A stretch of DNA of 64,000 nucleotides, taken from positions 558,001-622,000 of the forward strand of contig OY253674.1 of NCBI GenBank assembly GCA_958009085.1, read 5' to 3'. Positions 7,301 through 47,725 of this stretch are shown piece by piece. Below the pieces are notes generated by a model that saw only the letters and a program-made list of their open reading frames with translations, ran no database searches and was not told the DNA's origin. Position 1 is the stretch's first letter; each line of letters begins with the position of its first letter. A program made the translations under genes and the position numbers. This stretch comes from Protoeuglena noctilucae. Taxonomy: Eukaryota.

Positions 7301-8351
7301 CCGGGTGCGCGCTGCCCAGGACAGCCTCCTTGGCCGCCCGCAGCGCGATTGCCAGATCCAAGCACGCGGCACCCCGGCCCTGCCGCAAGCGCAGCCCGAC
7401 CAGAGCCCCCGCCGCATCCCACACGCTCGCGTCCGCGACACGCCCCGGACCCCCCGCAGCCTCTAAGGCCGCCTCCAGCACCAGCTCCGCCTCCGACGCG
7501 TTCCCCATAGCCCCGTGGCACTCGCCAAGGCGAAGCATGGTGGTCACGAGGTCCGAGCGCCGCGGTTCTTGCGACTGCTGCAGAGCCGCCAGGGCCAGCT
7601 GGTAATGCCGCACGGCGCCGGGCAGGTCGCCCAGCTCGCGTAAGCACGCGGCCAGGTCGCACCGTGCTCCGAGCGCCGCGGGGCTGGCGCCGGGCAGGGC
7701 CGGGAGCAGGTTCTCCAGGAGCCGCATCGCATCGGCCGCCTTGCCAGCCCGGCAGAGGCAGCGGCACCAGCGGCGGGCGCACTCGACCGCAGCGCTGTCG
7801 CTGGGACCCACGGCGGTGAGGAGCGCGTCGAAGGCAGCGCTGTAAGCCGCCAGCGCCTCGTCCGTCTGCCCTAGCTCGTCATAACATCGCGCCACCTCCA
7901 GGACGAGCAGGGCCGTCCCCGGGTCGCGGGGTGAGGCCACGCGCCCCAACTTAACATGGAGCGCTGCGAGCGTCGCGCGTAGCTCCTCCGGTGCACGAGG
8001 CGGTCTGTCTGGAGAGCCTGGGTGACCAAGCGCTCCTCGCGACGCCTGCGCCGGAGAGGTGCGCCGTGGCGGGGGCGCGGGCGCGCCTTCGACGAACGCG
8101 TGAGGTAGCCACGCGCCGTCGCTGGGCGCCGACGCCGGAGCTACGCCGTGAAAGCCGTCGCTGTCCCTGGTCACGGGCATGGAGCTTCGAGCGTCCGGGG
8201 GATGCGGGAAAAAGCCGGACTCATCGGCCAAGCTCGCGGCCGCGGCTTCCAAATTGTTCGCCTGTAGCATAAGGACTCTGCGAAGAAGCTGAGGATCCCT
8301 GTCGGGGTAAATTCCTCGCAACGTGGCGAGCCCAGCTGCTAGATCCGCCAT
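4346..8351 (-). CDS. Multi-exon CUE + TPR + CUE/CUE + DUF1771-like + Smr-domain protein (Cue2/N4BP2/NONU-1-like nuclease)
   Basis: N-terminal CUE-like LRGIYPDRDPQLLRRVLMLQANNLEAAAASL; TPR-like repeats; CUE-like LQLDFPSATRGELRNALEAAGDDVDMARDLL and LAELYPTVATDSLKTVLQTSRWDVSIAQGVL; C-terminal Smr IDLHGLHVREA...IVGRGLHS...LKPSV...NPGALEI. A phase-0 intron (6758-6639) joins the TPR and Smr halves. Without it these are two genes. Confidence 0.7.
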
Positions 8352-9118
8352 GGTGATGCGAGACGCAATATCAACGAACGCTGTGCGCAAATGTCGCAGT
8401 GAGGGAGTTCTGAGGGCGCGGGGAGAGCGGGGCGCGGTTGGGTTTGGTGCGCGGACTGGCACGTTGTTTCGGGCATCTGGAATGGAAGCTAGCGTAGGAG
8501 CGTGCGGGGCGTCGCACGCGATATTTGACAGGTGCAGCGCCGGGTGGCTCTCTCGAAGCACCAGCATCTCCTCGGGAGCGGCGGAGCGGGCCCCCTGACG
8601 AGGTGAGCCCCCCTCGCGCGGAGAGCCGCGGTGACCTGCTTAAGATGTCGACGATTTATCTGCTCGACGGCTGCCCGCGCCCTCTTGCGGCGCGTCTCGC
8701 TTGTTTGGGGCGGAAACCCCATCCCGCCGAAATTCGGCGCCCTCCCGCGCTGGACGTCCTGTCGGGGAGCTCCCATGCGCATTTCCGTTTGTTGATTACC
8801 GGAAGCGACCCTCGAGGGGCGCGCTGACGACCCGCCCGCCGCTCTCCGACACTCGCCTCTCGGTCACGGCGGGGTCGGACGCCGACACTTGGTCGACGCG
8901 TGCTGGCAGGCGCCCTTTCGGAGCAGTTCCGCCGCTTGCTTCCTTCGATCCCCCGTCGGCCGTTGTATCTGCCCTGCGCGAGGCGCACGCGGGCGGTGTG
9001 TGGTTCTGGACGGGTCATCGGCGCCCCCCGCCCACACCCGCGCCTGGGGCGTCGCCGTTGCCTCCGAGCTGCTGACGCGGTGTTCCCCAGCCGCCGCTCA
9101 CGGCCGCGTCCGCCCGCG

Positions 9119-9661
9119 ATGGCGTCCGCCAGGGCCGTGCACCTGCGCCTGCTCCGGGCGTGCGCCAAGAGTGACGACGCGCGCCCTGGCGCCGCGACCT
9201 GTGCCGCGTCGCGACGTTTGGGTGCTTGAGAAACCATGGGGCGTCCATACGTGGCCCCGCGCGCCGGGACGCGAGTTTCCGCCCGCCCCTCCGCCCCCAG
9301 CGTTTCGAGGGGACGCTGAGACGCACGCGAAGGCCCTGGCGGAGATCCGCTCCCACTTTCGGAAAAACGCGCACTTGACGGACCCGGGAGAGGTCCAGCA
9401 GGCTCTCTCGTCGGGACTTGAGGCCGCAAATTTCATTGCCAACGTGACCCTCCTGGCCCCCCTCCCTCGCGTGCCCTTGGCATCTCCTCGGTGCCCGTTT
9501 GGTTTCACGACGATCCGTCCCTCTCGTGTCTGCAGTACATCGTCCAGGGAACGCTGAACGAGCGCGGGAACCTCGTGGTACGGCCCCAGACCACCCTCAA
9601 AGACATCACCATCACCCCCGATCCCCTCACCGAGTCGGACGAGGGCTGCAAGCGCCACTGA
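9119..9661 (+). CDS. LYRM7: LYR-motif protein LYRM7/MZM1-like (complex III Rieske chaperone)
   Basis: Three exons give MASARAVHLRLLRACAKTFRGDAETHAKALAEIRSHFRKN...GLEAANFIANYIVQGTLNERGN..., matching the LYR/F.GD/F/VQG pattern of MZM1. Confidence 0.75.
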
Positions 9662-9759
9662 CAAGGTCAGAAAGAAGGCTCAGTGTCGCGGGGACCCTCG
9701 CCGGCCGACCGTCACGATGGCAGATGTACGAATCGACCCTGTCGCGCGTGCCCGCAGAG

Positions 9760-11395
9760 ATGGCCCTCCAGACAGCCGCGGCCGCCCGGGTCCGCCCGGG
9801 CGCGGCCGGCATCCGCCACGCCAGGCACTCCGCTCGGTCCTCTAGCCGCGCCATCCCTCGCGTGCGCTCGACGGGCGACGGAGCCCAGGCCGGCATCGGC
9901 GTCGAGATTGTGGATCCCCCCGGTGGACCCGCTGACGCGGCCCAGCACCCGCCGAGGTCTGCTAGCCCGCTTCCTACGGTGTCGAGATCGACTCCCAGCC
10001 CCACCCCCGCTGCCGGCCCGCCCAGGCCCGTCATGCAGCCCGGCACCATGCCGGCATCGGCCGCCCACGTCCTGGCCGGCACGCCGGGCCCCGCGGGAGC
10101 TGGCCCCGCTTCCTCCTTCCCTGGCCAGCCGACCGGCGGGGCGTGGGCCTCCGCGGCTGCGGCCGCCCGGCCGCCGGTGACGGCATCCCAGGTCAAGCCC
10201 CCGGTGGTCTCCGTTAAGCCGGCGGGGTCTCCGCCGGCCGGCGCCCAGCCGTTGCCGCGGATCACGTCCGCGGCCAACATGAGCGGGGGCTACAACGGGC
10301 CGCAGGGTGCGCCGCCGATGGCGCCGCCAATGGCGAGGGCCGCGCCCCCGATGGGCGTCGCCAGCCCTGCGGTCGGGGCTCCGCGCGCCCCGACGGGCCC
10401 CCCGATGCCGCCGGGCGCAGCGCCGTACTCGATGGCGAGGCCGGGGCCGCCCCCGACGGCCATGCCCGTGCGCCCTGCGCCGGCCGCGCCCGCCTCAAGG
10501 CCAGGCTCGGTTCCTCCCCCGGGTGGCATCCGGACGGGGGCCCCTGAGGTCAGCTACGCGGCCGTGTCCCTCCACGATAAGCCCCCGGGCGACGTCTCTT
10601 TTGACGACCTGACGGCGCAGGCCACCTCGCGGATCGAGGCGCAGCTGCAGGGCACGACAGTCCAGGACCTCCTGGCTCAGGTGCGGTGCCGACGGGGCTG
10701 CGGTGGCTGCAGTGGAGGAGGCTTGCGTCATCGTCATCGCGTGAGCCCTCGTCTCGTGTGCAGAAGGAGCGCCAGCTGCAGAGCATGCTGGAGCCGAGGC
10801 CCGGCCGCCTGCCGCCCCGGTCGTCCGAGGTGGCTCCCCTGCGCGAGGAGATCAACATCCTCGAGTCCATGCTGCGCCGCGGCGTGATGCGGCCCGCGGA
10901 GCTGGCCGGCCAGACGGCGCCGGTGAGGGCGGTGGCGACGGGCAGAGAGACATGCCCCGGAGTTCGCGGCAGCTGGAGAGTGACCCGCTGCGCCTCCTGT
11001 GCCGCAGATCCCCGTCATCCAGGACCGCGCCAAGTTGGAGGCGGAGGCCGTCCTCGAGCGTATCCGCTCGCTCAGCAAGAGGGCCAACGAGATTGGTGTG
11101 TGGCGATGCTGGCCGTAGTGCAGGGCTGGCAAGTCTCCCGCCGGCCGGCGTGACGCCAGCTCGCGTCTTCCCCCTTGCAGGCTACAAGGACATGGCGACG
11201 ATCAACGCCATCCAGTCTGACCTGGAGACTCTGGAGCGGGAGAACAGCATCCTGCGCGGCATGGCCGAGGACTTACTCAAGGCCAAGGCGGTGCTCGAGG
11301 AGAAGAGGAAGAGCATGCTGGCCGAAAGCGCCGCCAAATACGCCAGGCGCAGCTTCCCCGGCGACTACAGCGACCAGGAGGCGGTCTGGGACTGA
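9760..11395 (+). CDS. Unknown, probably plastid-targeted, Pro/Ala-rich protein with a C-terminal coiled coil
   Basis: Transit-peptide-like start MALQTAAAARVRPG...RAIPRVRS; long Pro-rich exon; three GT-AG introns join in frame to a coiled-coil tail ending DQEAVWD*. Confidence 0.7.
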
Positions 11396-11523
11396 CACTG
11401 GCGCGCGCTCTGGCTTGTGCTCTGGCGCTGCGCGGCGTTTCTATCGTCGCCTGTCGCGCGCTCCGATCCCAGTTACGCTTGAACGTGTCCGAGCAAGCGC
11501 CTTGACAAAAGAAAGCAGCGGGA

Positions 11524-12415
11524 ATGGCGGCCCTCGCGACGTTCCGGGCCCCGCCAATCCAATGTGCTCATACGCCACGCAGGCAGCAGCGCCTGCTCGT
11601 CGCTCCGCACCCTCCGGCGAGGGTGCGGGATTGTAAAGAGACTACCTTGCGTTGCGGCGTTCGAGCGCACGCGAAGAGGCGCGACGACGAGCGGAGCAGC
11701 AGGTGGGTGGCAGGAAAATTTCCGGGGTGAACTCCACTCGGCGGAGGGCGGCGTGAGCGGCAGCGGAGCATGAAGAACGAATCCGTGCAACCTCTTCCAT
11801 TGGCTGCGCAGGGTCCAGGAGACGTTCGTCGATGTGGCGAAGGAGATTGTCCGTCGTATCCCTCCGCAACAGCTGGCCGCTCTCGTGGCCGTTGGCGGGG
11901 TGGGTCTGTTGCTTGTCGGGCCAGCTCTCCTCGCCGTCGCCATGACGGGAGCGACCATTGCGCTGAGCATGGTGGTCGCTGGCTCCGTCATCGTCCCGAT
12001 GATGATGGGCCTCGCCTCGCTTGCCTTCGTGGCTGCGTTCCTTTTCCCCATCGGCGGGATGCTTCTGCCGTTCACGTTCATGGGGCTGGTGGCAGCGAAG
12101 AGCATCGCAATGGTGGTGTCAGGCGCGCTGGGCTTTGGCACCATCGCTGCTCTCCTATGGTTCTCCTCCAACAAGGTTTGAGCCGGCTGCAATGGCACAC
12201 CGAGCGCGGCCGCTGCCCTCATCCCTCCCCTGACGCCTGCCCACTCGAGTTCTTCGCAGGGCTCGAAGGTGTCCAGCAGCGTGATTGACGTGGAGCCGAC
12301 GCTGCGGATGGGGGACGACGAGGAGGCGCAGGAGGAGGCCAAAAAACGCAAGTTGGAGCTGGAGGAGTTTGACGAGCTGCTCCGGCGGCGGGAGGCGTTC
12401 AAGAACCGCATTTAG
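11524..12415 (+). CDS. Unknown, probably chloroplast, membrane protein
   Basis: Transit-like exon 1 (MAALATFRAPP...), a long hydrophobic exon (11811-12175), and an acidic tail ...ELEEFDELLRRREAFKNRI*. Two introns restore the frame. Confidence 0.65.
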
Positions 12416-12635
12416 AAAGGCGCCATGTTAGACTGGCGCTGGCGCTGCTTGCCAGGAACCATCAGCGGTCCTTGCTTTTTGAAGATGCCACTTGTACTGT
12501 GGAAAGACAGCGAGTCGGACGGGGAGCTCGAGAACTCGCTGTAGATAACGGTGCTGCTGCTGGCTGAGCGGATACCCCCCTCATTTGCTCCGCCCGTCCC
12601 ACGGAGCGCGCCCGGAACGGTGGAAACCAGCGCAA

Positions 12636-31796: not shown

Positions 31797-34594
31797 CTAC
31801 TGCCCCGCCTGCTGCGCTTGCCCCTGCGTCTGCAGCTGCTGCTGCTGTACGCGCTGCTGCTGGATCTGGATCAGCACCGCCAGGTGCTGCTGCAGCTGGT
31901 TGAATCGGTGGACGTACACGGCGTTCTGCTGGTGCAGCTGCTGCTGCTGCTGGGGGGTCAGGCCCGAACCACCGCCCTGGATCTGCGCGGAGGAGGGCGC
32001 ACGAGGTGAATGGGGCCGTTAGAGCGCCGAAATGTCAATGCATACTATCCCAGAGAAAGCGGCGCCGACGCAGGCATTGAGGGCGGGCATGCGCACAGGC
32101 AGAGTAAGTCGCGCACCGCTCCGCGTCGCACCTGCTGCTGCAGCTTGAGGAAGAAGCCGTGCAGCTGCTGCCGTTGCATGTTGTACTGATGGATGAGCAT
32201 GGTCAGCTGCTGCAGGGGCATTTGCTGCACCTGCTGCATCGTCAGCTGCTGCTGAGGCTGCTGCGCCTGCATCTGCGCCATTGGCGCGGCGGGGGCAGCG
32301 GCACGCGCCGCGGGCGCGGCAGCCGCGACCGGCCGGCCCGCCACATGCGCCTGGGGGGCTGCAGCGGCCGCCGAGGTCGGGACGTGGCCCGGTGCGGGTG
32401 CCTGCCCCCCCTTGGGCCCCTCCTGCTCTGCGCGCTGGTGATCCCGGTGCTTCTCCACGCTCTTCTGCCAAATCGCGCCCTGGTGGGCGACCATCCGGTG
32501 CATGACACGTAGCCGCGCCCGCCCCGTGAGGTTGCGCGCGAACCGCGCCATGCTCCGGNNNNNNNNNNNNNNNNNNNNNNNNNNNNNNNNNNNNNNNNNN
32601 NNNNNNNNNNNNNNNNNNNNNNNNNNNNNNNNNNNNNNNNNNNNNNNNNNNNNNNNNNNNNNNNNNNNNNNNNNNNNNNNNNNNNNNNNNNNNNNNNNNN
32701 NNNNNNNNNNNNNNNNNNNNNNNNNNNNNNNNNNNNNNNNNNNNNNNNNNNNNNNNNNCCCCACGGTCTGCAGATCCATCGGCTCCTTGATGATGGTCGA
32801 GTACCCGGGGGCGACGTCGTCCGTCACGGGGCGGGCAAAAACGCCGTTCGGGTCCTGGGAGAGGCGCGGCAGGGGCTGTGCGGTTAGCACCGAGCGCAGC
32901 GGCGCTTCTGCGATGCCCCGGCGTGCGCATGCCAGCGGCGCGCTACAGGTCCTCCGAGCCCCGTGCGCCGAGCGTGCACCCGACTGCACCCACTCCCGCC
33001 TCACCTTCTTGCGGATGCGTTCCAAGAGGTCCTTGAGCACCATGCGCGTGGCGGGCTCCTCCGGGCCCTCGTAAGGCGGCGGCGGGGAGGGCAGGCGGGG
33101 CGGCGCTGGGGGTCCGGCGGGGACGGCGGCCGTGGGCGCGGGCGGGCGCGCGGGCCGGGGGCGGGGTGATGGGGAGGGCGACGAGGATGGGAAGGATTCG
33201 TCTGAGTCGAGGTCCACGAAGACGCGACGGCGGACGGCGCGGCGCGAGCGCACCGGTGAGGGGTCCACGGAGCTGAAGGGGTGGACCCCCGCGCCGCCGG
33301 AGGGTCCGCGGCGGGGCGCCCTGCCTCCCGGGGCCTTGCGGTTCTGCCCCAGGGGCAGAGCGCCGATGGGAGGGAGCTTCGGCCCCGCGAGGAGGGCGTT
33401 GCCGAGGCCACCCAGCGACAGCTTGAGCTTGGGCATGGCGAGCTTGGGCATGGCCAGCTTTGGCATGGCGGGCTTGGGAGGATGCTGGGAGGTCGCGGGC
33501 GCGATGCCGCCCATACCCGTCGACGCCTGCGGGAGCGCGGGACAGCGATGACTCATGGCACGGGGGGTGAGAGGGCTGCGCGGGTTCGTGGGGTGCACTG
33601 CATTGCAGCTTGCCTTGAAGCTGGCAGGGAGATTGAGCTCGATCTTGCTTGACAGGGCAGGGATGCCAGGCGCACGGATTTGCTGCGGTGGCAGACCTGC
33701 CGCGATCTTGGGCCGCTTGATGCTTAACGGAGGGATGCCCCCGTCGCCCAGCGCCACGTATCCCGGGCGCTTCCTGCGACACGCACACCGAGACTCGGTG
33801 ACGGCGCGGACACGCGACACGTGGCGCGTGAGCCAGCCCAGCGGCATCGCCGGCAAACCGTGCAAGGGAGTCACCTGGGGCGCGGTGCGTTGCCAGAGGG
33901 TGGGGGCCGCGGCTTGCGGATGCCGCCCGTCGGCGCAGGCCTGCCGCCCAGCCGGAACGACCCCGCGCCTGCGAGGCCTGCAGCGCTGCCCGGCGCGACC
34001 TTGGACAGGCCGCTGATCTTGATAGTCGATGGAATTCGAACCCCTGGTGCCCCCGACGGTGGCGGAGGGGTCCATGCGGTCCCCGAAGGCCCCGCCGACG
34101 GCGCCGAATCCCTTGCCGGTGCAATCCCGGAGCCAAGCTTGACCTTGAGCTTGGGCGCCGGTGCTGGAGCGCTCGGCCCCGGCCCTTCCGCAGGCGTGGG
34201 CGCGGGCCCCACCCGCCCCTCGTCCTCCGCGTCCTTCTTCGGCGCGACGTTCACCAGCTTGAGCTTCTTGACACCCAAACTGGCCGAGGGAGGCGGCGCC
34301 GCGGGTGCCTCGGGCGGATCCGCGGGCACCTGCGCGGGCAGACGACAGGAAGTGGCGCTGGGGCGGGTACCACCCAGCCAGCGCGTCCCCAGGGGTCAGG
34401 AAGGAGTTCGCGCGATCGCTGTGACCAAATCGCACTTCGACCACGCGTCGCACGTGCCCCCGTGCTTGGAGGGAGGCGTCTAGCGCAGGGCGACGCGGTC
34501 TGCGCTCGCAGGGCGCCTCCGTACGGTCGCGGCGCACCTTCTCGTCGTCGCCTGCCTTCATCGGCACTTTGAGCTTAATCTTGAGCCCGAGCAT
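31797..34594 (-). CDS. Bromodomain protein (BRD7/9-like domain) with Gln-rich C-terminus; spans the assembly gap
   Basis: LKDLLERIRKK|DPNGVFARPVTDDVAPGYSTIIKEPMDLQTV, then the N-gap, then Q-rich exons ending QAGQ* at 31797. Confidence 0.85.
32559..32758. other. Assembly gap (200 N)
   Basis: Run of N inside the bromodomain coding region. Confidence 1.
33426..33470 (-). repeat. Three-copy 15-bp coding tandem repeat (AMPKL x3)
   Basis: agcttgggcatggcg / agcttgggcatggcc / agctttggcatggcg. Confidence 0.85.
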
Positions 34595-36664: not shown

Positions 36665-39600
36665 ATGGCCGCGACCGGCGAGCGAAAGGTGATGATACCT
36701 GGCTTTTGCTGCCGTAAGCCTGAAGGGCGTCCCGCATCGTGGCTTTTGTGACGAGACCGCGGGTGCCTGAGTTAACTTCCTGACTTAACCCGCGTGGAGA
36801 GCTCTCCTTCGCAGCTCGCCGAATTCAGGCGTGCCAAGGAGGAGCAGGCGCAGCTGTTGGCGCGGCACGTTCCCGGAGGGGCTCCTCGCGGCAGGACTGC
36901 TGTGCTCCTCGGTGCCTGCGCTGCGCTGGGTCTGCTTCGTCTGGTGTTGATGCGCTGGCCCGTTGTTCAGGGGCGCACGGAGATATGTTGAGCATAATTG
37001 GGCATTCTCTCCTCGCAGATGACTCGAGCGATGAGGAGGCCGACGGCAATGCCCATGGCTCAGCACGCGCGTCCGCCTCCACCGGCCAATCCTCGCGAGA
37101 GAAGGCCTTAGCGTACCTGGCCATGAAAGCGGACGAGGTAGGCGGTCCTTATCATGGGGACACGACGCCGAGGAAGAACTTAAGCAGGAGAGGCGGGGGC
37201 AGAGAAGTGCGCGTGGACCAGGACGCGCTGATGCAGATGATTGGGCAGCAGCTGTCGGGACGGAGCGCAGAGGGGTGAGAGCAGGGCCACTGCATCGATG
37301 AGACGAGTGCCTCTCGTCCCGCGCATGCGTTACGGTGGTCTACGCGCTCAGCGATTACCCCACCTGGGTGCGCATGCAGGCATCTTCCGACGGCGTCCGA
37401 GGTCGACGGCGCGTCTCCCACGGAGCGCGCGACGCGGGAGCTCGCGGCAGCCATCGCCGCCTCCGTCGCCAATGACCACCTGGCGTCCCTTCGACGGCGC
37501 GAGGCCGCCGCTCGTGAGCTGGCGGACGGTTTCAAAGAGCGGCTCAAGGCGGCAGTCAAGAAGGGCAAGACGATCGAGGCTGAGAGAGGCGAGGGACGAT
37601 AGCGGCGGCAGCGATGCTGGTCTATCCCGCAGTGCTACCCCGGTGTCATTGCAACGCCCCGCTCGCCCGCAGACGCGCTGGCGGCGCAGCTGGGATCGTC
37701 GGCCCGGAGTCTCACCGGCCGGGAGGGCGAGGCAGGAGCCCGGTCCGCGTCGGAGGCACCCGCGGCGCCCCGGGACGCGGGCCTCGCTGGCCCCGTGCCC
37801 GAGGCGCAGCTGCGGGCCGAGTTAGAGGACATGCGGCGGCAGTACGGCGAGGTGCACGAGCTGCTGGCGACGCTGCGGCGGCACCAGGCGGAGAAGGCGG
37901 AGGCGTTTGAGGCTGTCAAGCGCGAGTCCTTGGACCTCAAGGCGAGTGCCGGCATGCGCAGCACGTTTGATGCTCTGACAAACGGATGGCGCACGGGCGC
38001 CCCTGGGACAGCCAAGTGCGCACAGCCACGGGGACGACGCTTGCGTCTCCGCCGCGGCTGAGTCCTCTGGCACTCCACGCCATGCTCGTGCATGGGGCGA
38101 TGCACCATCACTTGTGGCCTCCGCTGCGTTGCTGCAGGCGAGGGCACGGCGCGCCGTGGCGGACGCGGCGGAGCAGCGACGGCGGGCGGAGGCGGCGGAG
38201 GCGAGGCTGGCGGCCGCAGGGTCGGCATCGGCTGGGTCGGCGGAGGCGGGCGGGGCGGTGGTTCGACTCGAGGCAGAGGTGGCGGCACTTCGAGAGAGGC
38301 TCCGGCGCGCGGAACGCGAAGGCGCGGACGCGATGGCCGAGCCGGCGGCGGCGCTGCCTGCGGAGCGCACGGGGGCGACGGTGGCCGAACTCCGCGCCCA
38401 GCTCGAGGTGATGCGGGAGGCCGTGTTTCGTGCTTTGTGCCTCGCCATGGCTCGCTATGGCTCCCGTGTTTGCGTCTTCTCTGTGGGATTGGAATTTTCG
38501 AGAAGCAGTGCGCTGCTTTCGGCGAGGGTGAGGAGTTCGAATGACGCTGACCGACGTCTCTCCCTGCCCCAGGCGCGTGCGAGGGCGCTGGAGGATGCGC
38601 AACGGTCGGCAGCGGCCGCAGAGGCCCGGAGCACGCGAGCAGAGCAGAGTCTCGACCGGCTGCGGAGAGACACGGCCGCGCTGGCCGACCGCGTCGCTGA
38701 GAGGGACCGCGCTGCCTCGGCGTTGCAGGCGCGCATTGCGTCCATGGACAGAGACGCGGCGGAGAGGGACGCTGCCCTGCGACGCGCGCAGGAAGCGAGG
38801 GACGAGGTGCGCTTGTTGCTGCGGCTGTGCAGGGCTGCGTGGCTGCTCCTCGATGTCCCCACGGTGGGTCGATCATCGCGTGCGCCGACACCAGCACGCC
38901 ATCACCTGCGCAGGTCGCCCGCCAGCTCTCGCTGCGGGACCAGGAAGTCGAATCGCTGCGCACCGCGGTGGCTGAGCTCGAGTCCCGCGAACAGGCGACC
39001 CAGGCCAAGAGGCCGCGTGTGGCAGAGCCGACCCCGAGTGCGCGAAGGGTCCAGGAGCTGGAGGTCGCGCTGGCTGCTGCCGACGCGGAGCAGCGGCGTC
39101 TGCGGGAGCGAGTGCGGCGGTTGGAGTCAGAGCTGCGGACGGAGCCGCCGCGTGCCCCGACAGCGCATGGGGCATCGACCGATGGGGCCGCCTCCCCGTC
39201 CCGTGGGTCCACCTCAGGGCGCACGTGGGGCCCCGTCCTGTTTGGGGGCACCGCGGAGGTGGGCGACGGGCCGACCAGCACGCCCACCAAGCGCGGCCTC
39301 ATGGGGGCATGGCACGGCGCAGCGGGCGGCCGTGGGGCGTCGGCCCCGGGCACCCCGTCGCGTGCCGCGCCTCCGGGCGACACCGAGGTCGCCCGCCTCC
39401 TGCGCGACCTGTCCGCCATGGCCGCGAAGGAGGAGGCGCTGGTCGCCGAGTGGGAGCGCGAGCGGTCGATGAGGCTCGAGGCCCAGCGGGAGCTGGCAGA
39501 GATGCGCGACGGGGCGGGGCGGGGGGCGGTGATGCCTGCGACCCAGGCTGGGCAGAAGGGCGACTCCGGACACCAGGACGGCCCGTCGCATTCTGCCGGG

Positions 39601-42600
39601 ACCGAGGCGGGGACGCTGGCAGGGAGGCGACGGGAGCCGGAGGCTCAGACAGAGCGGGCGGAATGGGACTCTGCGGGGGCGCTGGCGCAGAGGGAGCTGG
39701 CCTTGAGCACTGCCGAGGCCAGGGTGCGGGAGCTGGAGAGCCAGCTGGCGTCTGTCGTGGCTGAGAGAGACGGGCTTGCGGGGGACCTCGAAGCGAGCCG
39801 TGTGCAGCTGGCGCGGGCGCGTGGGGAGGCATCTGAGGCGCAGGGTCTCTTGCGGGAGAGGGAGAGCGATGTGGCCGACCTGCGCGTTTCACTCGAGGAG
39901 CGGAGGGTGGCTTTGGCTCGGGCAGAGAGCTTCCTGGAGGACGCGCAGCGGAGAGCAGAGGATGCGGAGGGATGGGTCGCGGTGGCTGAGGCGAGGGCCG
40001 CCGAGTCAGAAGCGAGAGCGGAGGGAGCTGAGGCGAGGGCGGGGGATGCGGAGTCGAGGAGTGAGAGGGCAGAAGCGAGGGCTGCCGAAGCGGGTGCGAG
40101 GGCTGCCGAAGCGGTGGCGAGAGCCGAGGAGGCTGAGGGGAAGGCCGCCGAGATCGAAGCGAGGGCGGCTAAAGCAGAGTCAAGGGCTCGGGAGGCGGAG
40201 GCGAGGACGGTTGAGCTGGAGGCTATGGCTGCGGAAGCGGTGGCCAGAGCTCAGGGGGCGGAGGCGAGGGCGGCACAGGGGGAAGTGAGGGCTGCCGAGG
40301 CAGAGGCGAAGGTTCGGGAGAGCGAGGGCCGGGTCGCCGTGCTGGAGACGGCGGTGGCAGAGGCGGCGTGGAGAGCCTCGGAGCTGGAGGCGAGGTTGGC
40401 GTCGGCCGAAGGCGCCAGGGCGGAGGCGCATGCGCGCGCCAAGGCCCTGGCGGTGCGTCTGGAGGAGGCCGAGGGGCAGGTCCGAGCTCTGGAAGAAAGA
40501 CTGGAGCTCTTCTCCGTCCAGCACGTCGCTGTGGCGCGAGACCACGCGGCCTTGTCGGAGGAGTGCCGGGGCTTGCGCCGGGAGGCGGAGCGGCTGCGGG
40601 AGACGGCGACCGCTCGGGGGGTGGAGTGCGAAGAGCTGCGGGAGGTGCTGGCGCGTCGCGACAAGCGCGTATCGGAGCTAGAGCAGAGCCTGCGAGAGGC
40701 GGAGGGGGAGGTAGAGAGCCTCAGGGCGCGCGTCGGGGACGGGGAGGCCGGGGGTCCCGGCGAGTGGCTGCCAGAGACCAGTCGAGCCGAGGAGGCGCTG
40801 GGCCTGGCTCGGGAGGCGGTGGAGATGGCCATCGATGCGGCAGAGTGGTCGGCGAGGGACGCGACTCAATCTGACGACGAAGTGCAGCAGCTGGCGGGCG
40901 CGGCCGAGGGGTCGCTTGCTGGCGTCAGGGCCCTGCGGGCCGCTGCGGAGGCTGCGGAGATGCGCCTCGCGGCGGCAGTGGAGGCCCGGAGTGCGGCAGA
41001 AGCGCCCTCGGATGAGCTGGCGTCTCAAGTGCAACGTCTGGAAGCTCACTCGGCAGAGCTGGTGCGCGAGAGGGGGGCGGCAGTGTTAGCGGAGCGCGAG
41101 CGACAGGAGCGGGAGGTGGCGGAGGTGCGCAGGGAGGTGCAAGACCTGCAGAGAGCATTGCAGGAAGCAGAAGGTCAGTACCGCGACGCCCTCGCGCGCG
41201 TGGCGAGCCTGGAAGCGTCGGAGGTCCAAGCCAACGAGAGGGCGCATCAGTCGGCGGCAGTCGCGGAAGAGCTGCGGTGCCGTGTTCGAGCCATGGAGGA
41301 GGAGCTGTCCTTGGAGCGTGAGCGTGCGGCGGCGGCAGAGGCGGCGGGGGCAGAGCAGAGGGCGGCGCTGGAGGGAGAGGTCAGGGCGGCACGGGATGCA
41401 CGGGCGCGTGCGGAGAGTGACTTGGCGGAGGCACGCCGGGAGCAGGAGAGCGCCGGGATGGAACTGGAGGGCGCCCGCGAGAGGGTGCGGGCGCTCGAGG
41501 TCGACTTGGCGGGGCTGGCGGGGAGGGCCGAGGCTGCCGAGGCGCGGTGTGCGGAGCTGACGGGTGCCGTTGAGGAGCAGCGGGGGCTCACGGCGCAACT
41601 ATCGGAGGCGGCGGGCGCAGCTTCCGATGCGCGAGCCGACGCGGACGCGGCGCGCGCTGAGGTGGCGCGGCTGACTGGGGAGTTGTCGGCTGAGCGCACA
41701 CGGGCAGAGGAGAGCCGAGCAGCTGTGGAGAGGGCGGATGGCGCGCGGGCAGAGGCAATTCGGGACGCAGAAATGGCGCGAGAGGAGGCCGCGACGGCTG
41801 AGGCGGCTCGGTTGGCGGCTCAGGAGGCGGCGGAGGCACTGCAGTCGGCGCTGCGTGAGTCAGACGGTGCACGTGCGCGGGCAGAGGAGGCCGCGGACTG
41901 TGCCGGGCAGTCGCTGGCTGCGAGCGAGGCGCGGGTGGCAGAGCTGGAGCGGCAGGTGGAGGCCACGCGAGCGCTGCGGGACTCTCAGTCGGCCGATGTG
42001 GAGGAGGTGCGCCTTGCGATCAATGACCTGGCCACGCACCTGCTGGGCGCCGAGGGTCCACATGGAGCCATCGATGTGGGTCTGCTGTCTCCGGACGATG
42101 TCGAGGGAGTGGCATCTGAGGCGACGCAGGCGGTGTCGTGCCTGGCCGAGCGCCTGGCATCCCTCGCCCGGGACTGCCAGGCGCATGAAGACCGCAACGA
42201 GGCCCTGCAGCGGGAGTTGGAGGGCATCCGCGAGCAGGGCCGCGCCGCGGACGCCCTGGCTGCCAGGCACGCGGCGGAGACTGCCTGCACCGTCGGGGCT
42301 CTGCGCGCGGAGGTGGCAGAGCTGTCGCGGCAGCTGGAGGCGACACGTGGGGAGGTCGCAGAGGCACAGAGCCTGGCAAATGAGGAGCGCGCTTTACGGG
42401 AGGAGGCTGAGAGGGCGCGGCTCGCGTCGGAGGGCCGGGTGGCGGCAGCCGGAGAGACGGTCGGTGTGACACTGGCGGTGCTGGCAGAGGCAGAGGCGGT
42501 GGCGTCTGGAGTGCTTGCGGCAGCCCAGGCGGACGCGCAGTGCTACGAGGCTGCAGCGAGAGAGGCCGACCTAGTAGCGCGGCGGTGGGAGGGGCTGCTG

Positions 42601-45600
42601 GAGGAGGTGGCTGTGGCGAAGGACGCTGCGGAGGGTGCGAGGATGCGCGCAGAGCAAGCAGAGGCGGCGCTATCGGCGGGGGATCAGGAGGTGGCGGGGC
42701 TGCGGGATGAGCTGCGCAGGGCAGAGGCGGCGCTGTTAAGCAGGGCCCACGAGGTGGCTGGGCTCGCCGAGGAGGCAGCGGCTCTGCAGGCGAAAGCCGC
42801 CGAGGCCGAGGCCCGCGCTTCAGCATCTGGGGAGCGCGTGCGGGAGCTGGAGAGCCTCCTGGTCGCCAAAGAGCGCGAGGCGACTGCGGCGCTGGCGGCT
42901 GCGGAGCACCGGGCTGCTGCTGAGGTGGCTGACTTGCGCGCGGCGACGGAGGCCGCCCAGGAGTCAATGCGAGCGGAAGCGGCGGCGGCGATGGAGAGGG
43001 TGGAGGAAGCACTCGCGCAGCGCCAAGAGGTGCAGACCGAGCTGGGCCGGGCGAGGGCGGAGGTGCGGGGCCGTGACCGTGCTCTGGTGGCCCTGGGGCA
43101 GCGGATGGCGGAAACGGCTCTCGCGGCCATCGGCGGCAACGACGCAGGCCCAGATCCCGTGTTTGAGAGGATGTCGTCGCTGGCAGACCGCGCCCTCGCG
43201 GAGGCAAGGCAGGCGGCTGCGAGTGCGCGGGCCCAGACGCGCGTGGGTCCGTCTGGGCCGAAGCCGGAGGTCGTCCTCGCTGCCAAGCTCAGTGAAGCTG
43301 TTCAGAAGGCCAAGGTGATGCAGGCCAAGTGGCAGGAGGCTGATCACCGGGCTTTGGGTGCGGAGAATCGGCTGTCCAGTGCGCGCGAGCAATTGGAGAA
43401 AGTGCAGGGGGTCTTCATGGATGTGGAAGCTCGTATGGTGACCCTAACGGAGGCACTGCGGGAGATGCTGGGTGAGGCAGATAGTCTCCAGGCTGCGGTC
43501 CTGGGAATGGGGGCCAGCGCTGCTGATGGGCAGGGAGACGCGGCGGCCGCCGTGCCGGGTGCCATGGAGGGTACGGTGGCCGATGAGCAGCCCGGGGCAG
43601 GGGTGCCCGGCGGTCTGGACGGGTGGGGCGACGCGGCCTTGGGCACGGGGGATGGGTGGGAGGGGGCGGGGGCGCTATGGAGTGAGCCGGAAGCCGCGGT
43701 GCCACTGGCGTCGGTGGGTCTGCCGTCCAGCTCTGGTGTGCCAGGGTTGCAGCGCGGGGCTGGAGTCTTCGAGGCCGCGTTAGAGAGACTGGTGCTGCCC
43801 GCACGGTGCGAGGCGGCCGAGGCGCTGCTGCGTCAGCTGCGGGATCGGTGGCAGCTGTGCCGGCAGCAGGTGGATGCGGTACCCGGTCATCGCATCCAGC
43901 GCGACGACGCTGCTGCTCCAGAGCGGCTCTCTGACCAGGAAGTGTCGAGAGCAGAGGAGCGCGGCTGTGACGCCTCCGGACATGCGGAGGGCCAGGGGGA
44001 TGCCGTCAAAGCTTCGCGACTCGTGGAGCTGGAGGCCGAGGTAGCTGAGCTGCATGAGGAGCTGGAACGGCGCATGGCAGAGGCTCGGGAGGCGGAGGCT
44101 CGCGGGGCGGAGTTGCGAGCGAGGGCAGAGCGGGCGGAGAGCGCGCTGCAAGCACAGGAGGGGCGGGAGACGGAGGCGAGGGAGGCGCTGAGGGCCATGG
44201 GTGCGGCATCGGAGCAAGAGCGTGACGTGATGAGGGCCGAGCTGGCGTCGGCACAAGGCCTCGCGGTGGCTGCGCAGGCGGAGGCGACGGCTCTGCGGGC
44301 GGAGGTGGAGCGGCTGCGGGCGGAGTTGGAGGGTGCTTGTAACGCGATGCAGGCGGCGGAGGACGGGGCGCGGGCGGCGTCCGAGGCGGCGTCCGCTCGG
44401 CTGCGCGCGGCGGTGCGGTCGCTCAAGCGGGGGATCCAAGAGGCGCATCGGGAGCGGGACGAGGCGCAGGGGCAGCTCGCGGCGTGCCAGGCGGCGCTGG
44501 CGGAGGCATCCACCGAGCTGGCGACGTCCCGAGAGGATCTGTCGCGGTGTCAGGAAGCCTTGGGCGATAGGGAGCGGCAGCTGGAAGACGCGCGGGAGGA
44601 GCTGCGGGTGGCGACCGCAGCCTTGGCGGAGGCGCGGCAGGGTCTCGTCATCGACTCCCGGTCCTCAATAACAGTGCCGGGGTCGTCTCTTGCGCCAGCG
44701 ATGGACAGAGCCGAGGGCGCGGCGGAAGGGGGCGCGCCCGCTGCGTCTGTCGGCACGCCTGCGTCACAAGCGATGCCCCTGGTCGACATGCGAGGCACGA
44801 CTGTGTACGGCATCGCATCAGATGGGAGCGCAGGCGGCCACCATGCTCCAGAGCCCACAGCTGCTGTCGACCCATGGGGCGTTGGAAGTCCGATGGGTGG
44901 CAAAGACGGCATGCCCGCTGAGAGCGCGTCTGACGGGTGGGACCTGGGCACCTCCTCAGTCTTTGCGTCCCCCAGCCCGCTCTCGCAGGCCCGGCGGGGT
45001 GCCGCAGAGCGCCCAGGCGCAACCGAGTCCCTCCCCTTCGGGGCCGACTGGGGTCAGGACGAGGTGCCTGGGGGCGCTGAGGGTTGGGGTGGGGTCGCGT
45101 TTAAAAACCCTGTGTTTGACGACGCGCCTGCTGAGTCGCCAGGAGGGCCCCGGGAGGGCAGGCCGGTCCCGACCGAGGGTCTCACAGCCGCCGAGCCGAC
45201 AGCCGCGCTGGCGGAGCGCGTCAGGGAGCTGGAGTCGGAGCTGCTGGCTCTGTGCGAGTCGCTGGCCGCCGCGCAGACTGCGCGCGACGACTTGGAGAGG
45301 GCGGCGGAGGGGCTGCGTGCGGCTGCGGAGGACGCGGCAGCGAGGGCGGGGGCGGCGGAGTGCGAGGGGCGCGCGTGGAGGGAGAGGGCCGCGGCAGCGG
45401 AGCGCGAGGGTGCAGCTGCGGCTGAGGACCTGCGGGCGCAGGCGGCGGCGAGCGAGGCGGCGCGGCGTGATGCGGAGGCAGCGCTGCAGGAGCTGCAAGC
45501 GCGTCTCGACGCAGTGACGAAGCAGCGCGACAACTTGCAGCGCGCGGTCCGGCTGCTGCGGGACGGCGCCGACGCATCGCGCGAGGCTTTGGAGGCGAGC

Positions 45601-47725
45601 CAGACCCGGACGGCTGCTCTCGAGGCGGAGTTGGCTGGCGTGACAGAGCGCCTCTCAGAGTCAGAGGGCCGCACCGCTGCACTGGAGGCACAGCTGGCGG
45701 AGGTGGCATTGCAGCTGGAGAGGAGCCAAGCTGATGCGAAGGAGGCGCTAGTTACGACTGCAGCTCAGGAGGGCTCTGGGTTGGCAGAGGCCGAGGGCGT
45801 GATTGGCGAAGAGCACACCAGGGATGCCGTACAGTTGCAGGCGCTGGAAGAGGCCCTGGCCAGTGCCCGGGCGGAGGCGGAGGCTCTGCGCGTTGATCTG
45901 GCGGCCGCGACGGAGGCGTGGGCGACGTCGCAGCGGCGGGAGGAAGCAGCGGCCGCGGCGCTGAGTCAGGCGATGGGGAAGCTGGAGGGACTCCGGGCGC
46001 AACTGGTTGATCGTGCGGCAACGGCGGCGGAGGCGACGGCAGCTCAGGACGAGGCGCAGCGCTTGCGGGAGCAGCTGGACCGCGCCACGGCTGACCTGGA
46101 GAGCGAGCGGCGGCGGGCGGAGGGCGCCGAGGCGCATTTGGCGGAGGCGCAGAGGTCCGCTGAGCAACTGCGGCGACGGCTGGGGCGGGAGGAGCAGCGC
46201 CGTGCGGATGCCGAGCGTCGCGTGGCAGACCTCGAGTCAGCGCTGGCAGCGGCCCGGCGCGAGGCCTCTGCTCTGCGGGACGGGCTGGAGCAGGAGTGGG
46301 CGCGCGTGGCGGCGTTGCGGACCGAGGCGGCAGCGGCCGAGGGCGCATCGGCCACGCATGGGCAGGCGCCGCTGGCGGAGGTGGATGCCGAGCGCCACGC
46401 GTTGGCGACGACCCTGGGCGAGCTCAGGTGCGCCGGTGGCGGTGAATGCGCCCCAGTAACTGCGCACCTGTCGTCTGTCTGCCGCTGCAGCTTTGACACA
46501 CTCCTTGGCCCGCCTCGCCCTCGCAGGGTCAAGATCGTCGATGCCGAGACGCGCCTCGAGGTCCACCGCGCGTCCACGGAAGCCGCAGCTGAGCTGGAGG
46601 GCGTGGCTGCCGGTCTTGAGGACGCCCTCAGGGCTCTCGCCAGTGCGATGGCAGGCGAGGGCGGCGTGCGCTGCGTCGGAAAGCGCTCTGCGTGGCGCTG
46701 CGCCACTTGATTCCGTCCGGGGCCGCAGTGGCGTAGGATGGACCTGCTCTGATCTCCGCGAACCGCAGATGAAGCTGCAGGGACGGAGCATGGTTTGAGG
46801 CAGAGCCAGGACGGAGAGCGGGCCACGCTGCGCGAGGCTGCCGAGGCCGCCTGCGCTCTAGCGGGCGAGCTGGCGGACCGCGCGGAGAGCGTCAGGGCTG
46901 GCGTTGCCAAGGGTGTGGTCCACGGGGCGCTGGGCGCCACAGCGGCGGCTTGCCGGGCGGCTGCAGACGTCGGGCGACTGGTGGCTGAAGCCCAGAGGCG
47001 TCAGGCCGCGCGCAGGCGCCCCTCTGCCCCCGCGTCGCCGAGAGCGGCCCGGGCAGTGGCGGAGGAGGCCCTCCCACGGGCCAAGAACGATCCTCCCTTC
47101 GGCAGCCCAGCTGGGAAGAGCGTGCGGCGGCGCCCTCAGGAGGACCCGGGGGACATTGAGATGGGCGTGGCACGCGGAGCAAGCGCAGAGGACAGGACAG
47201 GAGGCGGGGCGGCGGCGGGGACGCTTGGCGGCGCTGTTGCTGGCATGGGTGCCGCGCTGCCGTGGCTGCGTGGCCTGTTCGCTGGCAGGGGAGCCGAAGC
47301 GGACCAAGCGGATGGTGACGTGGCGCGCAAGGTCCCTGGAGTGGGGTCTGGGGTGGGTGGGTCCGCTGCACAGCCCTCTGCCGATCGGAGCGGGCCGGAG
47401 GCGTCTCTGGTGTGGTTGCGCGGGGCGGGGTCGACTCTGCGTGGTGCGGTGGAAGCGACGGACCGCGCGACCGCGGGGGCCACCAAGCACGTCTGCACCT
47501 CTCCTGGCACGCGCGTGGCGGCGTTGGGTTACACAGGTGACAACAGGCGGCGTTTGCGTTGTGAGGTGTAAGGTCGGCAAGCTGGCATCTTGTCGCTGTC
47601 GCCAATCCGCCTTACGCTTCTCTGCGCCTGCAGTTGCGTTGCATCTGATTTTGCTTTGGTCAGTGACATCGTCGCACGGCTGCCCCTCAAGTATGGGCTC
47701 GCTTTCAGGGGCCGGGGCAGGCTAG
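36665..47725 (+). CDS. Giant (~3,000 aa) coiled-coil, tail-anchored golgin-type tether (TNO1/CASP/golgin-84/giantin-like TMD)
   Basis: MAATGERK|LAEFRRAK start; ERLKAAVKKGKTIE motif; a 7.5-kb exon (38914-46427) of E/A/R heptads; last intron 47537-47633 yields the C-terminal TMD RVAALGYTVALHLILLW with a Y-x3-LH signature. Confidence 0.8.
39985..40330 (+). repeat. Degenerate 21-bp (7-aa, AEARAxE) coding repeat array
   Basis: AEARAAE SEARAEG AEARAGD AESRSER AEARAAE AGARAAE AVARAEE... Confidence 0.8.

Follow-up and report, generated by a model that had tools for sequence, protein, structure and literature searches.

The LYR-ORF2 locus and its RNA contigs

The analysis described here concerns a stretch of 64,000 nucleotides (nt) of Protoeuglena noctilucae DNA (contig OY253674.1, positions 558,001 to 622,000 of the forward strand), which is referred to below as the window and in which all positions are given, and within it two closely spaced genes on the plus strand, viz. 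a short open reading frame (ORF) for a protein of the LYR family (LYR, or ORF1) and a longer ORF, ORF2, which begins 98 nt beyond the stop codon of the first. The G+C content is about 68% across the 64-kilobase window and the introns are short. Sixteen public runs contain part of the stretch, of which 7 are recorded as RNA, and the RNA contigs of four runs (X7, X8 and X10 of study P3, and X13 of study P4) were mapped over the region 8000-12500; the parts of this region that RNA does not cover, viz. 8604-8754 in X7, X8, X10 and X13 and 9359-9509 in X7 and X8, were left out of the evidence. It had been proposed earlier, in a reading of the sequence alone (the sequence-only reading), that a single mRNA encodes both proteins.

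The contig that bears most directly on this proposal is record 2 of X10 (1661 nt), which matches the window at 8547-8600, 9534-9663, 9756-10677 and 10761-10921, and onward to 11485, with no other letters. Its first 54 letters, at 8547-8600 and without a mismatch, are joined to 9534, and after a two-letter ambiguity is resolved the junction falls at 8602/9536, with GT..AG ends, no letters between the joined parts, 933 nt skipped and a contig word depth of 68.7. Exon A (8547-8602, plus strand), which this junction defines as the first exon of the mRNA for ORF2, is non-coding; its donor reads GAG/GTGAGC at 8602/8603, and its 5' limit is that of the contig only. The segment spliced out of the ORF2 mRNA (8603-9535, plus strand, 933 nt) includes LYR exons 1 and 2, and a Pfam scan of the ORFs in 8489-9596 on both strands found no family, i.e. 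no hidden gene was detected within it. Downstream of this segment lies the shared exon (9536-9665, plus strand), which is free of ATG and is both the last coding exon of LYR and an exon of the 5'-untranslated region (5'-UTR) of ORF2, as seen in record 16 of X8 and record 2 of X10. Further, exon A is itself ATG-free and occurs in one copy only in the window, its donor and the acceptor at 9536 fit the local GT...(C/G)CAG pattern, and in the leader formed by exon A, 9536-9665 and the AG that follows the spacer intron there is no ATG ahead of 9760. With exon A followed directly by 9536 in the X10 contig, the LYR start codon and exons 1 and 2 are absent, and ORF2 therefore has a monocistronic mRNA, in which ATG 9760 is the first AUG.

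Record 16 of X8 (1586 nt) starts exactly at 9536, as would be expected of a branch of the assembly graph at this acceptor, and its downstream joints are those of the X10 contig. All three introns of ORF2 are spliced in both contigs, which end at 11465 (X8) and 11485 (X10). The coding exons of ORF2, all on the plus strand, lie at 9758-10680 (with ATG 9760), 10764-10922, 11008-11095 and 11181-11490, the last including the stop codon (11393-11395) and a 3'-UTR of about 90 nt; the ends of RNA contigs there range from 11465 to 11490. Among the contigs listed for X7, X8, X10 and X13, none connects LYR exon 1 or exon 2 with ORF2. The idea of one mRNA for both proteins is in this manner upheld in part, as both ORFs are real, the spacer is spliced and the last LYR exon is found in the ORF2 mRNA, but the mRNA represented by the X10 contig skips LYR exons 1 and 2.

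The spacer between the two ORFs (9662-9759, 98 nt) reads CAAG/GTCAGA...CCCGCAG/AG-ATG and contains ATGs at 9717 and 9724, followed by that at 9760. These positions, together with the LYR start at 9119 and its TGA at 9659-9661, are present in the sequence as previously given. The 92-nt intron of typical local size that had been predicted in this spacer (9666-9757, plus strand, holding both ATG 9717 and ATG 9724) is seen in RNA contigs of two of the four runs, viz. X8 record 16 and X10 record 2, which show the joint 9665/9758 with 92 nt skipped and GT..AG ends, and other RNA-confirmed introns of the mapped region measure 83-109 nt. Its excision yields TGACAAGAGATG (TGA-CAA-GAG-ATG), leaving a 6-nt spacer and placing ORF2 in frame with LYR, again in agreement with the sequence-only reading. 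Record 9 of X7 (9522-9691), which is of low depth, is unspliced at the spacer donor, and the X13 contigs do not reach this site. Retention of this intron had been expected to restore decoy AUGs, and this is correct for ATG 9717, which stands in another frame than ORF2 and begins an ORF of 42 codons that overlaps the start of ORF2. ATG 9724, on the other hand, is in frame and would lengthen ORF2 by 12 N-terminal residues, and judging from its frame it is to be seen as a second possible start and not as a decoy. A polyadenylation site between the ORFs, combined with a separate start for ORF2, had been named as the finding that would speak against a common mRNA; no loose poly(A) end is reported within 9662-9759 in any of the four RNA runs examined, whereas an ORF2-only mRNA from exon A is seen.

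The LYR gene itself consists of three exons on the plus strand (coding parts 9119-9170, 9301-9443 and 9536-9661), which together give a stop-free frame of 106 amino acids (aa) from ATG 9119-9121 to TGA 9659-9661. Exon 1, of 52 nt, carries the start codon and has LLR where the LYR tripeptide would stand; exon 1 of the LYR gene on the metagenome contig L001, which is described in the next section, is also 52 nt long and of the same phase. Intron 1 (9171-9300) is modelled from the reading frame and from the identical exon structure in L001. Intron 2 (9444-9535, 92 nt) is confirmed by record 4 of X13, in which 9443 is joined to 9536 and which ends at 9565, showing that LYR exon 2 is present in spliced RNA; the acceptor at 9535/9536 is the same one that is taken by exon A. 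The peptide of exon 2, which is 55% identical to exon 2 of L001, holds the core of the Complex1_LYR domain (Pfam PF05347: 30.5 bits against a cut-off of 24.8, E=3.5e-7). The Atlas neighbours of the protein are all LYR clusters (top score 0.82), and exon-wise queries of the PDB gave weak matches only, to NDUFA6, NDUFB9 and LYRM4 (E at least 0.14). With exon 2 as the query, alone or as a two-species profile, no named LYR homologue was returned, the sole match being the window's own ORF, P0007. Judged from its sequence, ORF1 is a protein of the LYR family. LYRM7, the more specific name in the sequence-only reading, is a candidate assignment, and the C-terminal (I/V)QG...VRP block of the protein may resemble that of LYRM7.

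The RNA data over the first LYR exons are of a different kind from those over ORF2. Intron 1 is crossed unspliced by two low-depth contigs, viz. record 8 of X7 (8995-9297) and record 15 of X8 (9057-9310), and a further X8 piece, deduced from depth bins, covers exon 1 from about 8891. Record 11 of X7, also of low depth, is unspliced across two of the ORF2 introns. Since X7 is unspliced across ORF2 introns as well, low-depth unspliced pieces of this kind, including those over LYR exon 1, may be DNA or pre-mRNA. The pieces over LYR exon 1 that cross intron 1 unspliced have word depths of 3.6-4.2, and over LYR exons 1 and 2 the depth is given as 2.6-3.8, as compared with 163.5 (X8) and 68.7 (X10) for the ORF2 contigs, a 20- to 40-fold difference, although the word depth of contigs is a poor measure of abundance and is used here as a hint only. 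Between exon A and the LYR start, in a patch of lower local G+C, a palindrome of the form TTCCG-N12-CGGAA is found at 8783-8804, which could be part of a LYR promoter.

The ORF2 protein and the gene pair in a second organism

The coding sequence of ORF2 (9760-10680, 10764-10922, 11008-11095 and 11181-11395) specifies a protein of 460 aa. Its first coding exon encodes a presequence-like N-terminus, rich in Arg, Ala and Ser and with 1 acidic residue in the first 45, followed by a region rich in Pro, Ala and Gly, which make up 58% of the residues in the middle part of the protein. A composition of this kind would be typical of an organellar presequence, for which it does not distinguish between plastid and mitochondrion. 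In the Pro/Ala-rich part, an unspliced low-depth X7 contig shows a 9-nt deletion at 10483, which is probably a strain variant. The second coding exon encodes a conserved block, PGRLP...PLREE(I/V)N(I/V)LE, and is supported by RNA joints, by the database protein P0001 and by an alignment with the protein P0006 encoded on L001, while the third is supported by RNA joints and P0001. The last 192 residues of ORF2 agree with P0001, save for the called start residue of the latter, and because P0001 is derived from a transcript, this match supports the splice model.

The searches made with this protein returned few relatives. With exon 1 as the query, the sole match was P0001, a transcript-derived C-terminal fragment. 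A HMMER search with P0001 over 1.84 billion representative proteins gave 5 matches, of which three are fragments of ORF2, the fourth is a 1546-aa protein with 9 short matched stretches that we take to be a coiled-coil match, and the fifth is P0006, with 39% identity. No Pfam family was found at E<=1 for coding exons 1 and 2, and for the last exon and P0006 there were only sub-threshold matches of coiled-coil type; a sequence search of the PDB with ORF2 gave no match, and the top score in the Atlas was 0.77. In the AlphaFold model, the 192 aa of the C-terminus form helices throughout, with a predicted local distance difference test score (pLDDT) of 74 and a predicted template modelling score (pTM) of 0.34, and a Foldseek search with this model found no match in the PDB at E<=0.001. 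The C-terminal part is accordingly described here as a predicted conserved helical domain, without a family, solved relative or fold match in the searches made. One further sequence, P0004, a predicted protein of 101 aa, is 84% identical to ORF2 in the matched part around MATINAIQ...AVLEEK and then diverges; an origin in a related strain, another 3' end or a contig that is chimeric could each account for it.

A metagenome scan with the alignment of P0001 and P0006 returned a single contig, L001 (2598 base pairs (bp), 77% G+C), which encodes P0006. The C-terminus of ORF2 is 32% identical to L001 over 211 columns, and a tblastn search located a LYR protein ahead of P0006, with the same strand encoding both, in three pieces that are 61%, 55% and 59% identical to the LYR protein of the window. 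These LYR exons lie at 343-394 (52 nt), 571-713 and 866-1012 and end in a TAG stop (TAG-C), and the ORF2 start codon is at 1159, after a spacer of 146 nt. The colinear LYR-ORF2 pair is in this manner kept in a second organism, at one locus only. As in the window, the spliced LYR coding sequence and the spacer are ATG-free in L001, and an acceptor-like GCGCCCGCAG (CCCGCAG) is present three bases before the ORF2 ATG. The spacer is not a multiple of 3, and two intron removals made by eye leave 31 or 37 nt. When the upstream regions of the window were compared with L001 by blastn, no conserved non-coding block was found. The tight linkage in L001 would be the best argument for a functional coupling of LYR and ORF2; it may alternatively reflect microsynteny among related compact genomes.

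Absence of ATG from the LYR exons was another of the grounds on which a common mRNA had been proposed, with ORF2 reached by leaky scanning past an AUG-poor ORF1. It is correct that no further ATG occurs, in any frame, after the start in LYR exons 1-3, but the depletion is within what chance gives. When the spliced LYR coding sequence with the 6-nt spacer was shuffled with its dinucleotides kept, 6.8% of the trials contained no ATG (P=0.068, or about 1 in 14), and for L001 the corresponding value is P=0.083. The relevant test is that on exons 1 and 2 alone, because the depletion in exon 3 is already explained by its use as ORF2 leader, and here P=0.33 for the window and 0.47 for L001. Synonymous resampling gave no out-of-frame ATG with a probability of 0.50 (window) and 0.78 (L001). 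The ATG-free state of LYR is within chance in both sequences. By the general rule, which looks to the bases at -3 and +4, a start codon with a purine at -3 is not a weak one; the LYR AUG stands in the context CGCG-ATG-G in the window (G at -3 and G at +4) and CGCC-ATG-A in L001, and would not be weak by this rule, which may not match the local consensus.

Interpretation of the shared exon

The best explanation of these results, to which we give an even chance of being correct, is that of a locus with two outputs which have one exon in common. As the X10 contig shows, the ORF2 mRNA starts at or upstream of 8547, where a divergent TPR gene has its 5' end close by, exon A is spliced from 8602 to 9536 at the very acceptor that serves LYR intron 2, and the resulting mRNA keeps the last LYR exon as an untranslated leader, loses 9666-9757 and offers 9760 as its first AUG, encoding ORF2 only. 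The exon A mRNA would then be the main source of the ORF2 protein through ordinary cap-dependent scanning. The LYR protein would be made from a much rarer transcript, in which exons 1 and 2 are joined to the same third exon (the joint of exons 2 and 3 being seen in X13) and which would continue through ORF2 and be structurally bicistronic. This continuation is suggested by two observations, viz. that the 98-nt spacer showed no poly(A) end and that LYR and ORF2 are tightly linked in L001, and we consider a bicistronic form of the rarer transcript about as probable as its absence. If it exists, leaky scanning on it would yield little ORF2, given the purine at -3 and the G at +4 of the LYR start. 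The LYR transcript could start either at a promoter of its own, with coverage beginning near 8891-8995, or at exon A by way of a plausible acceptor at 9090 (CTGAC...TTCCCCAG), 28 nt before the LYR ATG, and with this acceptor exon A could therefore feed both forms.

A conserved splicing switch, in which one transcription unit from near 8547 either includes the LYR start exons, giving a bicistron of LYR and ORF2, or skips them, giving ORF2 only, is possible and rather doubtful, and the same applies to a role of the last LYR coding exon as ORF2 leader within such a switch. Retention of the spacer intron would, in the case of a switch, be an extra control that acts through the upstream ORF at ATG 9717 and the extension from ATG 9724.

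Several points weigh against the two-output explanation. The joint of exon A is supported by one contig of one run, and all of the spliced ORF2 contigs with the spacer joint come from one study, P3. The unspliced pieces at LYR exon 1 may be DNA or pre-mRNA and so say little of the 5' end and the abundance of the LYR mRNA, and no listed contig shows the 3' end of a LYR transcript. Further, contigs cannot phase two junctions that are 130 nt apart, and the statements on linkage apply to the contigs listed over 8000-12500. More generally, assembled contigs cannot prove the starts, ends or levels of RNA or the existence of single molecules, and tails are rarely kept in them.

If there are instead two overlapping monocistronic mRNAs and no bicistron, then the LYR transcript keeps the 92-nt segment and is polyadenylated there or just inside ORF2, and only the exon A transcript reaches ORF2. 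This we consider a tentative possibility, and much of what speaks for it comes from the next gene downstream. Although only 129 nt separate the ORF2 stop codon (11395) from the ATG of that gene (11525), one mRNA ends and another begins within this gap: in X8 as well as in X10 there is a break between RNA contigs at 11485/11487, and the depth ratios of ORF2 to the next gene differ between the runs (163.5:32.9 in X8 and 68.7:62.9 in X10). Separate contigs are found across this 129-nt gap, and the 98-nt spacer alone is therefore no proof of co-transcription; the argument that 98 bp leave little room for a terminator and a promoter is a weak one. The lone loose poly(A) end that was seen, at 12496 in the next gene, is preceded by TGTA, and TGTAC is also present at 9725 in the spacer intron. 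However, TGTA is missing from the 3' end region of ORF2, and as a lead to poly(A) sites this motif, with one example, is weak. Similarly, record 9 of X7 is unspliced at the spacer donor, as this explanation requires, but the end of intron 2 is likewise kept in it, and in view of the other unspliced pieces in X7 it looks like DNA or pre-mRNA. The lack of a loose poly(A) end within the spacer in the four runs is also against two separate mRNAs, and the tight linkage in L001 would then be explained only by synteny.

It is quite unlikely that both proteins come solely or mainly from one bicistronic mRNA, on which leaky scanning beyond the LYR AUG would give access to ORF2. The 6-nt spliced spacer and the lack of an AUG between the two starts are what such an mRNA should show, L001 has kept the pair, again free of ATG, and algal LYR bicistrons with leaky scanning are described in the literature (PMC7896298, PMC11892635). 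However, the X10 contig skips the LYR start in going from exon A to 9536, the depth over LYR exons 1 and 2 in the same runs is 20- to 40-fold under that of ORF2 (depth being, as noted, a poor measure), the depletion of ATG has P=0.07-0.08 overall and P=0.33-0.47 in exons 1 and 2, and the start contexts GCG-ATG-G (window) and GCC-ATG-A (L001) are not weak by the general rule, from which the local consensus may differ. It is very unlikely that the joint of exon A to 9536 is an assembly chimera and that the true ORF2 mRNA has its start in LYR exon 3 or shortly upstream of it. Such an origin would agree with the joint being present in one contig of one run and with the X8 contig starting exactly at 9536; the latter, however, may be accounted for by a branch in the assembly graph at the exon border, and the joint, which is flanked on one side by 54 nt free of mismatches, has GT..AG ends and an acceptor that X13 verifies independently, while the joined parts are on the same strand, 933 nt apart, and exon A is unrepeated in the window. 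Readthrough of the UGA in the spliced mRNA, leading to a fusion of LYR, Gln-Glu and ORF2, was the alternative put forward in the sequence-only reading, and we regard it as extremely improbable. ORF2 is in frame after splicing and a C follows the stop codon, but readthrough depends on a bicistronic mRNA, for which itself there is no listed contig, and the in-frame state is not conserved, as L001 has a TAG stop and its 146-nt spacer is not a multiple of 3 either before or after the trial removals of introns. A fusion would also bury the presequence-like N-terminus of ORF2.

Related systems and neighbouring features

According to Gallaher et al. (2021, PMC7896298), LYR-motif proteins are common on green-algal bicistronic transcripts, with examples such as SDHAF3 paired with TOM22 and LYRM9-like, ETFRF1-like and LYRM1-like pairs; partly polycistronic loci are there as many as fully polycistronic ones, and some loci yield both mono- and polycistronic transcripts. 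The word LYRM7 is absent from its main text and from 7 supplementary files. The present locus resembles those described there in having a small LYR ORF close to an unrelated ORF on the same strand, with a short gap, no AUG between them and colinearity in a second species. It differs from them in that its downstream ORF has an mRNA of its own which skips the upstream start exons, its RNA contigs are unequal and no listed contig spans both ORFs. Table 1 of the same paper characterizes an exclusively polycistronic locus by a mature transcript across both ORFs, polyadenylation only behind the second of them, colinearity in another species, a sole transcript start at the upstream gene and near-equal abundance of both ORFs. 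Colinearity is seen in L001, but the X10 contig shows an ORF2-only mRNA that skips the LYR start, and the contig depths, a poor measure, are far from equal. For the Chlamydomonas and Auxenochlorella bicistrons, PMC11892635 reports weak Kozak-like contexts for ORF1, a stronger context lowering the output of ORF2, and a TOM22 locus in which ORF1 and the inter-ORF region are AUG-free. ORF1 and the spacer are likewise AUG-free at our locus, but its LYR AUG, with G at -3 and G at +4, is unlike the weak contexts of those bicistrons, with the reservation that the local consensus may differ. A LYR-motif protein encoded upstream of a longer unrelated ORF is also known from human, where, according to Samandi et al. 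(2017, PMC5703645), the microprotein altMiD51 is encoded in the 5'-UTR of MIEF1 and co-expressed with MIEF1 from one transcript. That case is one of an animal 5'-UTR ORF of one gene, whereas here LYR has three coding exons and most of the downstream-ORF mRNA probably excludes the LYR start.

With its shared exon, the skipped start exons of the first cistron and the intron that closes the spacer as its particular features, the locus is within known kinds. At SNURF-SNRPN and CDKN2A, alternative first exons or exon skipping combined with a common downstream exon lead to different proteins from one locus, and the choice of a 5' exon spliced onto a common exon sets the product there as it would here. 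Unlike in these systems, the shared exon at the present locus codes for LYR and is a leader for ORF2, and the two proteins have no residues in common. If the rare LYR transcript runs through ORF2, then another LYR-family protein would be added to those on algal two-protein messages, and splicing, beyond the context of the start codon, would set the output of each protein. For annotation, the lesson is that in a compact and GC-rich genome a short gap and an AUG-free upstream ORF are insufficient for calling a bicistron.

Upstream of exon A lies the divergent TPR-repeat gene, on the minus strand, with its ATG at 8351 and a Pfam TPR_12 match. Its RNA contigs end at 8431-8464, about 85-115 nt from exon A, which suggests a compact bidirectional promoter. 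On the other side, the contigs of the gene that follows ORF2 begin at 11487 in X8 and X10, and the 3' end of the ORF2 mRNA (11465-11490) and the 5' end of this next mRNA abut or overlap by a few bases. The introns of this gene are at about 11703-11811 and 12176-12259, and its poly(A) tail follows 12496. At 12140, where the window has A, the contigs of X7, X8 and X10 (all of study P3) read G, for which either a difference between strains or editing of the RNA could be the cause. An Rfam scan of 8000-12500 gave a single sub-threshold match, to NiCo (E=0.73), which was considered due to chance. Elsewhere in the window there is an assembly gap of 200 N at 32559-32758, the GAPDH encoded is of the cytosolic type and carries no information on lineage, and an unbroken open frame of 2669 codons, with no Pfam family at E<=1e-5, extends over 38701-46707 on the plus strand.

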